Positions 45,401-51,400 are shown, counted from the stretch's first letter. The stretch: DNA of 64,000 nucleotides from Prorocentrum cordatum (GCA_963575745.1 CAUYUJ010000081.1:310001-374000), one strand, 5' to 3'. The notes: generated by a model from the sequence alone, not told the origin. Made by a program: numbers and translations.

Positions 45401-48400
45401 AAGTCTCCGAACAGAGATCGCTCAGGACCTTCACGACAGACTTGGAGACGTAGAGCTCTTCGTTCCAGACGCGCACCTCGATCTTCCTGCCGTCGGGCAA
45501 CACCAGCTCGGCAGAGTCGTGGTTCCACTTGAACTTGCACCCATGGCTTATCAACCTTCCCAGGGGCACCAGTGTGCTCACGGCCGCGCTAGATGTCACT
45601 ATGACTTCATGGCCCAATGTCCACGCCTTGACCGATCCCACGGCCAACTTGAGCTGGACTTCCCAGGCCCCTCTCGGAATGCGCTCGCCCTTCCAGAGTT
45701 TCCCCTCAGCAGCACCCACTCCACCCCCAGCTGTCGTGCTCGTTGGATGGCCTTCGCATGGACGGAGGCCTTGCCTGCTTGTGGCCCGGCCAGCGTCTCC
45801 CTGTCGTTATTGTTGCCTTTCTGGCTCTTCGGTCTGGCGCACTGCTTCCAGGAGTGCTCCTTCGAGCCGCAGTTCGAGCACAATCCTGGCTTCTTGTCGC
45901 GCAGGAACTTGTACTCCGCTCCCTTCATGCATCCGGACGGTTTCGTCCAGAATCGGCACGGGTTAGGAGTCTTTGTGCTTCCCGGCTTCCCTGGCTGTCC
46001 TGCCTGGGCCGGCTGTTCCTGCCGGCACGCCTTAAGACAATCCTTCTTCAAATGCCCCAGCTCACCACACTGGAAGCACTTCCTGTTCTTCTCATCCCCA
46101 GAGTCCGCCAGGTTGGCGCTGCAGCTCCCGCCGAGGTCGGTGACGTCGCGGTTCCGCATCTCAGACCAGAGGTACGCCACGAACTGCTCTACCTTGTCGT
46201 GGCTCGTCTCCTGGGGCAAGTTCTTCTCGTGCAGGTAGACTTGCAGTCGGTAGTCCAGCTGCCTGTTCCTCTCCACCATGCGGGCTACTGATCCCTTCAC
46301 TGCTTGCAACATGTCCTGGCTATCTTGCATCTCGAGGCCCATCTTCTTGGCGCGCCGCATGTGCCCGCTCCAGGTCTCGAGGATGTGCATGGCTTCCCGG
46401 TGGGATCCAGCCACGCGCAGCGCTGTGAGATTCTGCTTCAAGGCGCTGCGGTCTTCGAGGGGCCCAGGCACCGCGTCGACCATGGTCTCCAGCAGTATCT
46501 CCGCGCAAGACAGAGTTCCGCGCATGATCAACCCTCGCCGGAGAGCCTCTGGAAGAGCCTGGACCAGCAGCGGCCTGAGGCGTCGCTCAAGTTCAACACA
46601 TGGTACATCTTCAGGCCGCTCCACTCTCACAGCGCTTCGCTGCAGGTAGGGAGTCGCCAGATGGCGCTTGGACGCCTCCTCAACTTTCTCCCATATGCCA
46701 GTCCAGCAAGTCACTCCTGCAGGCCCCAGCGATTCAACCTGCAGAGCTACGAGATCCTTCCAGGTGGCGAAGAGCTCCGCTCGCGACCTCCGGCCCGTGT
46801 ACTCCAGCTTGGACAGCTGCAGGCTCTTCATGGCATCCCATGCTGCGCGTACCGCGTCAAACTGCGTGGGGCCGCGTCCGTCGGCAACCGCGGCAGGTGA
46901 GAAACCAAACCGGTTGGGACCATCGTCCGCGAACAGTGGACGGGCCTCACCTGGAGGAGGTCGCTGCCCTGCCTGGTCGTCTCGGTCCAAAGAGAAACTC
47001 AGAAGGGTCATCCCAGAACCTGCGGGCTGAGTAATCAATGGAGGCGCCCCGCGACCCTCCAAGGTCTTGATGCGGTGCTCGAACTCCTCCATCTGCTCGC
47101 TCATCCCCTGCAGCATGTCCTGGAAAGTTAGCAAGCTCGCCTGGGTCTGCCAAAGCTGCTCCGCGAGATCTTCCGTTGCAGACCCCGCACGGCTCTCCCT
47201 TTCCTCTGCTGGTCCTGTCTGGCTCCCCTCTGGTGCCGGGGACTCTGCTGCGTTGGACGCCGCGCCCTGCCCAGCGCCAGTGCCCACAGAGTGCGCCTCC
47301 CGGAACTCGTCGTCCCCGGAGCTGGTCCCAGCCAGTCCGGCTTCCGGTGAAGACCAGGTGGTTGCGGACCGCCTGCCCCTTCGACCGGCGCGGGCCGCCG
47401 CGCCAAGCCCCACGCAGCGACTGCTCCTTGCCGCGCGCCGCTGGCCAGCGCTCCCAAGCCCCGGACAGAGAGGGATCCAGCAGCTCCAAGGACTGCTCCG
47501 CCCGCTGTTGCCGCGGTCTCGAGGTAGTCGCCCGTGGCCGCAGCAAACCGCCTGGTCTCAAACTCCCGGCGTCGCTGTCGCTGCGCACGCGCCTGTTGGA
47601 GTTGGCCCAGCAGCCACTCCTGTCGCGCCATCTGCGCCGCGCCGTACTGGTACCGCATCTGGTCGTAGCACCTGGTGCAGAGGACGCTGCCCGACGCCTG
47701 GTACGAGCAGCTCCAGTGGACGTGGCCGCCGCACCAGTCGCACGCACCCTGCGGCCCCGGGTCGTTGCAGAGCTGGCAAAACCTCATTGAGATCGGCTGC
47801 AGCGTGAGGTTGGGCTCATAACCCAAGATGTACCCTGTGGGGTCCATTACTGCTCGCTCTGCTCCGTATGCTGTGGAATTACCAATCTCCCTTCTGCGAT
47901 GTCGGACAGCAGACGTATCGTGTCTTCTCTACTTCTGGGCAAGGGCTCCTTGAGAACCCTCTTCGGCTCAATCCCGAAGTACTTACAAAGTAAAGTATTG
48001 GTCGACACAATTACTCGCTTGAATTGTCGAAGCTGCTGTGTGGCAGGCTTGCGCGTATCCTTTTTCTTCTCCTTGCCCATCGTGTGGGCCTTGAGCCAAC
48101 ACAGTTCCGGAGATGATCCCTGCGACCGGGGAGTTGCCACACCCGGTCAGCAGCCTCCGCTGCCAGTAGGTGGGGTTGCCCCACACCTCCTGGCCCAAAA
48201 CGATGCGACACACTATTCTCATAAACGCTGGCGGGAATCGTGCTCCGCGACACGAAGCTGGAAGCAAAAATTCGCCGGCCCAACGGGCCAGAGGCGTGCT
48301 AAGATCTTCGGTAACTTGTTAACAATATTTAATCGCTTCGCTCATGCCGCCGGCCCTGGAGCCCTCTTTAGGGCCTCTTGGGGGCCTCTTGGGGACCTCT

Positions 48401-51400
48401 TGGGAGTCTCTTGGGGCTCCTTGGCGGCGTTTTGGAGGCCCCCAGGGCCTCTTGGGGGGCTCTTGGGGGTAGTCGATTGCGGCTCCCCCCTCGGAGGCCA
48501 CGATCCTCGTGAGGGGTGTCGAAAAATACCCTCCCCTGGAGTGGTCTGGTGGCTTCTCCCGGGCTTCTCTCGGGACCTTGCCGGGGTACTTTTCGTCCGG
48601 GGGCCCCCAGGGGCCGCTCCGCGCGCGCGAACTAGAAATATTGTTAACAAGTTACCGGAGATCTTAGCACGCCTCTGGCCCGTTGGGCCGGCGAATTTCT
48701 AGTTCGCGCGCGCGGAGCGGCCCCTGGGGGCCCCCGGACGAAAAGTACCCCGGCAAGGTCCCGAGAGAAGCCCGGGAGAAGCCACCAGACCACTCCAGGG
48801 GAGGGTATTTTTCGACACCCCTCACGAGGATCGTGGCCTCCGAGGGGGGAGCCGCAATCGACTACCCCCAAGAGCCCCCCAAGAGGCCCTGGGGGCCTCC
48901 AAAACGCCGCCAAGGAGCCCCAAGAGACTCCCAAGAGGTCCCCAAGAGGCCCTAAAGAGGGCTCCAGGGCCGGCGGCATGAGCGAAGCGATTAAATAAAT
49001 GCCCAATGTTTATGAGGACATCTTGTTCTACTGCTGGTCCCCGCGTTGTCCGTTTCGTCTCGGGCATGCCACGCCCTACCCACAGCACAGACATTTGTCT
49101 GGCTGCTGCTAGACCTGGACGCCGATGACCTTACGAGGCCAACCCGGACACCCAGCGGGCAGCTTACACAAGGCGCGCACGGCCACCAGCGGCCGCCAAC
49201 CTGACGCGAGGCCAACGCGGACCGCCTGCGGACAGCTTACTGATGCCTGAGCGTGCACGCGCGTACACACCACGAGATGAAAAGCCACCAGGAGGCCCCA
49301 AGAGGCGCGCAAGAGACCCCAAGAGGCCCCCAAGACGCCCCCAGGAGGCCCCAACAGGCTTCAAAGAGGCCCCTTAGAGGCTCCCAAGAAAGAGGCTCCA
49401 AAAAGCCATCAAAACTGCTCCCCAGAGGCTCCCGAGAACGCTTCTAAAAGCCCGCAGGAAGAATCCATGAGGACTCTGACCCGCAACTGAGGCACGGTGG
49501 CGGGATGGGCCGAAGGCCATCAGATCCGCCGCTTCCTGCTGGCTTGCCACAGGGGTGCCTGGCGTGCTAGATCCTTTCGGTCTTGGTTTTGGCTCCTTTC
49601 CCAAACAATTCCCCCGCCGCTGCGCAAGCGACGTCTCCAAGACGGCCTCGATGGCCTCCAAGACTGCCAAGATGGCCCAAGATGGCCTCCACGTTTGCCC
49701 AAGACGGTCCAGGATGGCCTCCAAGACGGTCAAAGAGGGTCCCAAATGCCTACAAGTCCGCCCAAGAAGCCACCCAGACGGCCCACTATGTTTGCAAAAG
49801 GCCCCCAAGAGGCCTCCAAGACTGCCAAAGAGGCCGCTCAGAGCTCCTCCAGGAGGGCCCGAAGAGTCCAAAATGTGTGTCGCCCCAAGACGGCTGCAAA
49901 GGCTTCCAGGAGGACCTCATGACGGTCAAGATGGCCTCCAAGACGGCCCAAAAGCTTCCAAGATGGCCTCCATGACAGCCCAAGAGGGTCCACGATACCT
50001 CCAAGTCCGCCCAAGAGGCCTGATAACCCAAGATGGCCCAATACACCCCCAGAAGACCTCCAAGACTGCCCAAGAGGCCTCCAAGAGTTTTTGTAGGAGG
50101 GCCCGAAGAGACCAAAATCATGGATTCCCCTAGGGAAATATAAAAATGTTTACAGTTGCCTTCCGACTGCCCGAGACGGCCCACCAGCCCACCAAGATTG
50201 CCCCCAGAGCGCCCCAGAAGCCTTCAAGATGGCCTCAACACGGCCCAAGATGGCCCCAAGACGGCCCGATAGGCCTGCAAGACGCCCAAGATTGCCTCCA
50301 AGACGGCCCTGAAGCGCCACAAGAGGAACTCAAGTCAGTTCAGAGAGGCATCCAAGCGGCTTCCGACGGCGTCAGACGGGCCAGGAACGCCCGAAGACGG
50401 CCAAAGCGGACCCGAACAATCCACCAAAGGCTCCCGAGAGAACCAAGGAGGCCTCCAAGAGGCCCCCGGGAAGCTCCCAGGAGACCACATGAGTGCCCCA
50501 AGAGGCTTCCAAGAGGCGTCCTTTTCCTTCTTCTCCTCCTTCTACTCCTCTTCTTCCTCCTCCTCCTCCTCCTCCTCCTCCTCCTCCTCCTCCTCCTCGT
50601 CCTACTCCCGTTGCTGCCATTCCCTCATTCTCCTCTTCCTCATGTGTTCTCCGAAAGGTTTCAACGACAGCTAGGGGAACACATGGTCCGATAACTCTAG
50701 CCCAGCGTTCGGCCACATAGGCGTTTTCAGAAAGGCAGGGAGGCGGCGGTGATTCGCCGCAGGCGTCTTCGACTACGAGGACATACAAGGTTCCCATGGT
50801 TTGCTACCGAAGAATCCCCCCCTCTCCGCACCCCCGGTGAAGGTGGGGGAATGGAGGAGTACACGCGCACAACCCTCGGACGTCCGCGAACGGTTCCTTC
50901 CGCCGGCCTCTGCGTGAGCTGCCCGCGGAGGTCGCGTGGCGGAGGCGGAAGAGGAGGAGCAGCAGCGAGCGGAAGGAGGAGGTCGAGGAGGAGAAGGAGG
51001 AGGAGGAAGAAGAAGAGAAGGGGAGCCAGCACCATACTGGGGAAACCACTACTCCCTGGACCTCTCTGGAGTGTGTTCTGACCAAAGTTCGAGGCGAACC
51101 AAGCGATGGCGACGAGGGCCTCCAAGGAGGCCCCAAAAAGCGAAAGCGAGGGAAGGCCAGCGGTATAGGTACCTCATCCTCCGCCGACATGCGCTTATCC
51201 TTCCCGCACCCCCCACCCCTCCACTGGCACGCCGAGCGCGCTGGTGCGGGGCACGCACCCCAGCGCCAGCGGAGGAGTCACCGCCCGCAACGTCCACCGC
51301 CTGTTTTTTCTTCTGGTTCCGCATGTGTGTGTGTGTGCGTGTGCGTGTGCGTGTGCGTGTGCGTGTGCGTGTGCGTGTGCGTGTGCGTGTGCGTGTGCGT

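Follow-up and report, generated by a model that had tools for sequence, protein, structure and literature searches.

Nested, Oppositely Oriented Copies of a Putative Helitron2-like Non-autonomous Element in a Copia Long Terminal Repeat of Prorocentrum cordatum

What is the short, non-coding sequence that interrupts one long terminal repeat (LTR) of a Copia retrotransposon in Prorocentrum cordatum, and how might it have moved there together with a second, reversed copy of itself? We examined this locus within a stretch of 64,000 nucleotides (GCA_963575745.1, CAUYUJ010000081.1:310001-374000), called the window below and numbered from its first letter. The interrupting element, here named E, is on present evidence not a new kind of mobile element; judged from its sequence, it is probably a non-autonomous rolling-circle element of the Helitron2/HINE type that inserted, reversed, into a twin copy.

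Read along the window, positions 48268-48996 have the order AAAT-a-ATTT-rc(b)-AAAT-rc(a)-ATTT-b-AAAT, where rc denotes the reverse complement (Table 1). The two versions of a are identical at 54/55 bases and the two versions of b at all 294 aligned bases, the latter alignment being broken by one 11-nt gap, and Tandem Repeats Finder (TRF) counts 9.0 period-11 units in one copy and 10.0 in the other. The simplest reading of the composite is that an intact copy in reverse, E2 (364 bp), interrupts an outer copy, E1 (a-ATTT-b, 353 bp), at the ATTT inside the latter. In element orientation, E1 and E2 each have AAAT on the left and close with GATT-AAAT followed by A, and the target of each reads AAATA; in uninterrupted copies (E2, and the metagenomic copy L017 introduced below) the sequence AACAAT-ATTT-CTAG is present once. 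A preliminary description of the locus had proposed just such an a-b-a'-b' structure with AAAT or ATTT at all five junctions, built from a 353-bp element and a reversed 364-bp one that carries an extra 11-bp unit and differs by one mismatch in a, with AAATA as both targets. Coordinates, alignments and unit counts bear this out.

The second LTR of the Copia element preserves the site without the insertion. Once the composite is left out, the LTR pair measures 731 bp (29 mismatches, 96.0% identity), a 5-bp duplication, AAAAG, flanks the whole element at 40403 and 49279, and Pfam domains (RVT_2 within 41238-42503, a zinc knuckle within 45599-47557) mark it as Ty1/Copia type on the minus strand. 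At the empty site the sister LTR reads GCAAAAAT/AAACGCCC (a slash within a sequence marks a junction or cut, here and below), with AAAT present once, and this target is the sole plus-strand AAAT of that LTR. Both BLAST segments of the sister LTR overlap on precisely 4 bases, the AAAT. Because of this single AAAT and this overlap, we regard the 725-bp composite as a genuine insertion that followed Copia integration, as had been proposed, into an AAAT of the LTR; an additional AAAT at 48997 is host LTR sequence. The Copia element is complete over 40403-49279, with a primer-binding-like GGTTATGAGCC adjoining its 5' LTR and a purine-rich tract adjoining its 3' LTR. Its reverse transcriptase has 27 protein matches, the best named relatives being ~28-31% identical, and an open reading frame (ORF) of 550 aa at 43514-45166, the expected integrase position, is without a Pfam match.

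Table 1. Positions, in window coordinates, of the E1/E2 composite, its Copia host and the related arrays.
Feature	Position	Strand	Remark
Copia 5' LTR, interrupted by the E1/E2 composite	47824-49279	-	96.0% identical to 40403-41133
Copia 3' LTR, with empty site AAAT at 40847-40850	40403-41133	-	
Copia internal region: gag zinc knuckle, RVT_2 reverse transcriptase	41134-47823	-	Pfam
AAAT, host target word, 5' side of E1	48268-48271	+	single in sister LTR at 40847-40850
E1 5' part a, 55 nt	48272-48326	+	T, then repeat CGCCGGCCC at 48273-48281; 5' boundary common to 5 metagenome loci
E1 5' hairpin containing CGCCGGCCC	48273-48296	+	DNA fold
ATTT, internal target word of E1 (minus strand AAAT), first copy	48327-48330	+	
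E2, intact inner copy, 364 bp, reversed	48331-48694	-	
E2 5' repeat	48693-48685	-	
E2 11-bp array	48363-48469	-	
E2 3' repeat	48356-48348	-	
E2 GCGAAGC	48341-48335	-	
rc(b), 305 nt	48331-48635		
AAAT between rc(b) and rc(a)	48636-48639		
rc(a)	48640-48694		
ATTT, second copy of the internal target word	48695-48698	+	AAAT 5' flank of E2 in element orientation
E1 3' part b, 294 nt	48699-48992	+	
E1 11-bp array	48865-48960	+	
E1 3' repeat GGGCCGGCG	48967-48975	+	
E1 GCGAAGC	48982-48988	+	followed by GATT
AAAT, 3' end of E1	48993-48996	+	either the final 4 nt of E1 itself (on a rolling-circle reading) or the repeat copy of a duplicated 4-bp word
E 3' terminal pattern			GGGCCGGCG...GCGAAGCGATTAAAT
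CCAAGAGGCCC/CCAAGACGGCC arrays	5851-6006, 12285-12897, 13262-13321, 30333-30821, 40004-40396, 49282-50517, 55253-55688, 56526-56807, 61718-62045, 62922-63274, 63526-63997		

Beyond the composite the window holds no second copy of E, with only array-type matches to E positions ~209-343 elsewhere, and no other E-like termini were detected in it. Public sequencing runs extend the picture: 20 of the 24 listed rows of runs with E words are marine, seawater or estuary metagenomes (16 studies). We compared four of these runs (X19, X2, X12 and X1) over 47800-49300, where contig depth is not equal to copy number. All of the 11166 contigs of X19 and 2241 of X2 that match this interval do so inside E. 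In the 5' part of E that lies outside the array, word depth sums to tens of thousands, against 0 (X19) and ~3-6 (X2) for the LTR flanks, a contrast of several orders of magnitude; the LTR is not covered in X19, X12 and X1, and its cover in X2 is low and ~8%-diverged. In two organism runs the E family seems to be highly abundant, and it occurs in marine and estuarine metagenomes. Since many listed records bridge the junction between b and a of an intact E (for example, 48589-48679 without differences), the uninterrupted a-ATTT-b is the common form. Seven listed records end at 48696-48698, 2-4 nt past the element's 5' T, and three of these continue into sequence unlike the window. Among the listed run records, none spans the whole composite or either of the junctions between a and rc(b) and between rc(a) and b.

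Metagenome contigs scanned for the 20 nt at the start of E gave 20 matching loci, six of which have extended similarity to E (L002, L005, L011, L013, L017 and L019). As L005 and L017 have identical flanks, they were counted once, which gives five independent metagenome loci with the 5' end of E. L017 (1046 bp) and L019 (779 bp) are complete, with the first ~110 nt and the last 30 nt as in E and, in their interior, longer arrays of 10-11-bp CCAAGAGGCCC-type units between T-rich spacer modules; L002 likewise has a longer tandem array than E1 or E2. Every copy of the family that we have seen is non-coding, with lengths of 353-1046 bp, in agreement with the earlier statement that E has no poly(A) and no ORF. 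The copies indicate that E belongs to a genuine multi-copy mobile family whose ends are defined, and to this extent the orientation-specific mobile family of the preliminary description is now represented by five metagenome loci. We rejected 13 of the 20 scan loci as copies of E, as they have nothing further in common with it and look like chance matches in unrelated DNA.

One further scan locus, L010 (1-26), is a contig that starts with GAT and the first 23 nt of E, comprising the whole inner hairpin, and continues with unrelated sequence. It shares its sample set with L002, L011 and L013, and may represent either a truncated copy or a different family with the same 5' hairpin; none of the four ORFs scanned in it as a possible longer relative matched Pfam. 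Among viral contigs, a 17-nt pattern of the 3' end of E found 15 loci, none with further similarity to E, and a 22-nt pattern of the 5' end found none, while two E patterns gave no match each among prokaryote genome contigs. The terminal strings of E were also absent from the paper texts searched, a scope that does not include Repbase or Dfam.

The ends of the family are sharply placed. Similarity starts at AAT/TCGCC in 7/7 aligned rows (E1, E2 and the five metagenome loci), where the search pattern fixed element bases 1-20 of the metagenome rows and not the flanking AAT, and stops at GATTAAAT, followed by A, in 4/4 complete copies (E1, E2, L017 and L019). The 5' flank is AAAT in these four, CAAT in L002, GAAT in L011 and TAAT in L013, and a loose contig end from X1 has ...TAT, so that across the eight sites AAT is seen at 7, AAAT at 4 and AT at all 8; the contigs of L002, L011 and L013 do not cover the 3' ends. 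Since AAT and ATT fill only ~0.7% of oriented window positions (893 in 128000), the preference for this target and its fixed orientation are far beyond chance. The orientation of the target word relative to the element is the same at 8/8 sites, which fits an asymmetric, strand-specific mechanism. What had been put forward as specificity for AAAT is therefore better worded as a fixed-orientation A/T word, with AAT at 7/8 sites; a strict AAAT does not hold, given C, G or T at -4 in three loci and one TAT. With AAAT once at the empty site, the copies seen are compatible with either a 3-4 bp duplication or a 3' word borne by the element.

Inside these boundaries, E has an asymmetric arrangement of repeats and hairpins. 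The repeat CGCCGGCCC occupies element positions 2-10, 1 nt from the 5' end, and its exact complement, GGGCCGGCG, is separated from the 3' end by 21 nt with AAAT counted; an inverted match of this length, 9 nt, was reached in 38/20000 shuffles of the ends. The label 'TIR-less' (lacking terminal inverted repeats, TIRs) consequently has to be given up, as the inverted repeat is present, terminal at the 5' side and subterminal at the 3' side, and is accompanied by a 5' hairpin. At the very ends, TCGCCGGCC and the reverse-complemented 3' end AATCGCTTC have only TCGC in common. The 5' repeat pairs with the bases adjacent downstream in a predicted DNA hairpin of -8.8 kcal/mol (z -2.06, equalled in 6/200 shuffles). 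In L017 and L019 the GGGCCGGCGG repeat, preceded by a short ATAT insert, opens the conserved 3' block, and the sequence further upstream is largely diverged from the window copies. Beyond the 3' repeat come G, then one base that is C or A, then ATGA, GCGAAGC and GATTAAAT; GCGAAGC is unchanged in 4/4 copies and, as the preliminary description had it, stands 4 nt ahead of the final AAAT. Passages of one published study describe the GCGAAGC 7-mer as a mini-hairpin with a measured melting temperature of 76.5 C, and place mini-hairpins of this type at single-strand phage replication origins (PMC13037366). The centre of E is a tandem array of period 11 whose unit number varies between E1 (9.0) and E2 (10.0).

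Retroposition was considered and rejected. A short interspersed element (SINE) or other non-LTR retroposon would be expected to have a head derived from tRNA, 5S or 7SL, an A-rich or simple-repeat tail and duplications that vary in length, unlike E, which has no tRNA-like head (a tRNA scan found no tRNA gene), no poly(A) tail, no Rfam match above threshold and no variable-length duplications, its flank words being fixed at 3-4 nt. Sub-threshold hairpin look-alikes in Rfam are due to the inverted copies.

The combination of ends, flanks and interior has close counterparts among described rolling-circle elements. According to passages of Bao and Jurka 2013 (PMC3627910), Helitron2 elements begin with a 5' T and have, 0-2 bp from that end, a short asymmetric repeat that forms a hairpin, and ~20-30 bp from the 3' end its complement, with a hairpin directly downstream, and in Chlamydomonas their non-autonomous forms insert right after TTTT with no duplication. 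E resembles Helitron-1N1_CRe of Chlamydomonas, as presented there, in its 5' T, its near-terminal 5' repeat with hairpin, its 3' partner and its putative 3' hairpin, and also in measuring a few hundred bp, having no coding capacity and inserting after a fixed word (PMC3627910). It differs from that element in that its 3' hairpin would be the 7-nt GCGAAGC and that it has no known Rep/helicase partner. FoHeli1 and FoHeli2, Helitron2-type elements of Fusarium oxysporum, are described in parts of another report as starting with TC and inserting between TNAT and A, with a one-base ambiguity at the 5' T noted by its authors (PMC5148889). E likewise starts with TC, inserts at NAAT/A (TNAT/A in FoHeli), and has an inverted repeat and terminal hairpins, of which the 3' one is putative in E; unlike E, with its 353 bp, its final TTAAAT and its 11-bp array, the FoHeli elements are autonomous, 5-6 kb long and end in ATTTT (PMC5148889). 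Finally, HINE/DINE-1 elements, which are non-autonomous derivatives of Helentrons, reach very high copy numbers and have subterminal repeats on either side of a tandem-repeat block of variable length, together with a 3' stem-loop (PMC4067079), and E is like them in its inverted repeat, its variable-number central tandem block, its putative 3' stem-loop and its apparently very high copy number. HINEs have T runs at their boundaries, while E has one repeat almost terminal (PMC4067079). At the level of sequence, E would share the features of Helitron2/HINE elements and differ in its target word and its very short 3' stem.

From the observed structure, empty site, family, conserved ends and flanks, and architecture, we infer an enzyme, its nick positions, a circular intermediate and an order of events as follows. 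An HUH Rep/helicase encoded elsewhere would make three nicks in one strand, each following (A)AAT, at the 5' boundary of the element (AAT/TCGCC), at its 3' boundary (AAAT/A) and in the target (AAT/A), and the strand would move, probably as a circle with the junction ...GCGATTAAAT/TCGCC.... No true target duplication would then arise, the left word being the target and the right word the matching last word of the element itself. As these bases are shared, the cut may just as well fall one base earlier, at AAA/T, which would correspond to the classical A/T Helitron site. One copy of E would have landed at the sole plus-strand AAAT of the Copia LTR, and a sibling copy would have landed reversed at the bottom-strand AAAT/A between parts a and b. 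This inner insertion site, CTAGAAAT/ATTG, is found in every family member on the bottom strand between a and b. E1 has a private T at 48308, where E2 (48658) and 4/5 aligned metagenome copies have C, the family consensus. At 48603 and 48618, where most run contigs differ, E1 and E2 are alike, and because part b is identical including these positions, the two are siblings. The data fit equally a local landing of E2, derived from E1 or a close relative, and a composite that was built elsewhere and then moved in as a unit on the outer ends of E1.

Several observations weigh against an assignment to Helitron2 or HINE. Among the 106 window ORFs of at least 200 aa, Pfam detected no Rep, helicase, recombinase or transposase domain, the matches being Copia domains together with weak sub-threshold ones in repeat-derived frames; because no Rep/helicase partner was found, Helitron2 membership is putative and argued from architecture. 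The 3' hairpin has a stem of 2 bp, and in nearest-neighbour folding the 3' end performs no better than shuffled sequence (z +1.08), so that any stability ascribed to GCGAAGC in E is taken by analogy from the published measurements of the motif. The insertion sites seen are seven plus one contig end, and a 3-4 nt word at both ends would be expected in equal measure from duplication of a short target or from the core of a recombinase. The target word, too, departs from the published ones: E has (A)AAT followed by A, where passages on Chlamydomonas Helitron2 give TTTT followed by T or C (PMC3627910), and those on HINEs and Helentrons give insertion in TT (PMC4067079), against AAT/A in E.

These points leave room for other enzymes. 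The preliminary description had named either a tyrosine recombinase or an HUH enzyme, and because the end architecture fits published Helitron2/HINE elements, we favour an HUH Rep/helicase over a recombinase of the DIRS/Crypton type. The latter, acting on a circle GCGA-TTAAAT-TCGC that recombines with an (A)AAT core and leaves the core on both sides, would account for a 3-4 nt word that recurs at both ends in one orientation, for the lack of an inverted repeat at the very ends and for a predicted junction with the 4-nt inverted arms GCGA and TCGC. It seems unlikely to us, as the targets have no common arms beyond the A/T-rich AAAT/AWW, an identity of 3-4 nt is short for a recombinase overlap, the window holds no recombinase ORF, and the asymmetric repeat, the two hairpins and the tandem array, which form the Helitron2/HINE signature, would be left unexplained. 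In general build, E is like Crypton and DIRS elements in the absence of TIRs at the very ends and in the short direct repeats at its boundaries, and unlike them in having no recombinase gene, no reverse transcriptase and no split or inverted long repeats; its hairpins and asymmetric-repeat ends are no described feature of either group. Terminal short direct repeats are all that passages of PMC3627910 mention for Crypton.

A 'peel and paste' HUH system of the IS200/IS605 type, unrelated to the Helitron Rep/helicase and recognising subterminal hairpins and cutting after a tetranucleotide both in the left flank and at the right end, predicts hairpins near both ends, a left-flank word equal to the right-end word and strand-specific insertion 3' of that word, all of which E displays, the 3' hairpin putatively, and E also resembles this group in having no TIRs at the very ends. 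IS200/IS605 elements are prokaryotic and use a single-domain Y1 HUH transposase, and to our knowledge no transposase family of this type exists in eukaryotes; they have neither an asymmetric 5'/3' repeat nor a tandem array, unlike E, whose host is eukaryotic, judged by the Copia element with its LTRs. IS200/IS605 elements such as IS608, as outlined in PMC3627910, have subterminal hairpins and insert strand-specifically, 3' of a word of four or five nucleotides, with no duplication, and the asymmetric repeat is treated there as specifically a Helitron2 trait; we consider the IS200/IS605 type improbable here. Also doubtful is a eukaryotic single-strand 'peel and paste' enzyme, be it a stand-alone HUH nuclease or a recombinase, that would read GCGAAGC and cut after AAAT in the flank, at the end of the element and in the target. 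Were it to prove true, it would bring IS200/IS605-like logic to a marine protist, and the LTR-embedded hairpin of ~300 bp might naturally silence the family as a whole. A cut-and-paste miniature inverted-repeat transposable element (MITE) mobilised by a DDE transposase, with a 3-4 bp duplication of AAT or AAAT, would explain the short identical flanking words and the single word in the sister LTR. It is very unlikely, since there are no TIRs at the extremes (TCGCCGG and AATCGCT share only TCGC, and the 3'-side repeat is subterminal), since a symmetric transposase complex would not yield a non-palindromic target word in one orientation at 8/8 sites, and since the -4 base of the 5' flank varies, yet the four known 3' ends are all AAAT. 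Lastly, inverted duplications are a known long-read artefact, and the 4 nt common to all junctions are possible microhomology, so the inverted inner copy might reflect two template switches at ATTT/AAAT in a locus with a single true E. This, too, we hold to be highly improbable: E1 and E2 differ at the consensus C/T position and by one 11-bp unit and so do not derive from one template, E2 terminates exactly at the independently defined family termini, and a simple fold-back would yield X followed by rc(X), not a-B-A-b.

The composite has further properties of its own. A 10-bp perfect palindrome, TTGTTAACAA, adjoins the internal ATTT target at 48316-48325 and 48641-48650; this sequence varies among relatives (L019, for example, reads ACTG-CTTTA-CAGT here). 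Over 48331-48992 the two copies form a near-perfect predicted hairpin of ~300 bp with a loop of ~59 nt (RNA fold -761.8 kcal/mol, z -46), which gives sub-threshold matches to microRNA precursors in Rfam.

Much of the surrounding window is repetitive. Units of 10-11 bp, reading CCAAGAGGCCC or CCAAGACGGCC, form arrays, in part with T-rich spacer modules, that match the interiors of L017, L019 and L002 at ~67-84% identity, and the Copia element is located between two of these arrays. A second repeat family is found at 49493-49518, 55738-55763, 30840-30886 and 63302-63319, each copy following a CCAAGAGGCCC-type array; its members share the block CACGGTGGCGGGATGGGCCGAAGGCC with a CCGAAGG-type mini-hairpin, and 2/4 copies diverge right after the block. 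These may be 3' regions of E relatives with other termini. Other repeats comprise a tandem block of ~2.2 kb at 51320-53550 (80-87% self-identity), a tandem block of ~1 kb at 18153-19201, and two blocks of ~2-3 kb, 13424-16300 and 26200-28200, that are ~70% alike, low in GC (0.49) and have a GC skew of -0.6. Pfam returned weak sub-threshold matches or none for the long open frames in these four blocks.

If E is a non-autonomous Helitron2-like element, the locus would provide a clean, empty-site-verified example of this style of transposition in a GC-rich marine eukaryote. Its target, (A)AAT/A, mirrors the last word of the element, a pattern that would be expected if one nuclease cuts flank, end and target. 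Transposition mechanisms as known are unaffected, unless the partner enzyme proves to be other than a Rep/helicase. HINE-type elements, a further case of which comes from oyster (PMC7492417), disperse satellite-like arrays through the genome; because E carries 10-11-bp CCAAGAGGCCC-type units, which fill much of the window, its family may explain the spread of such arrays here. The reversed self-insertion would correspond to the first step of the route by which, in passages on Fusarium, the FoHeli authors propose that composite or re-oriented Helitrons originate, namely self-insertion in the opposite orientation (PMC5148889). It also puts a near-perfect long hairpin inside a promoter-bearing LTR and, if the composite is transcribed from that LTR, this hairpin could yield small RNAs against the whole family.

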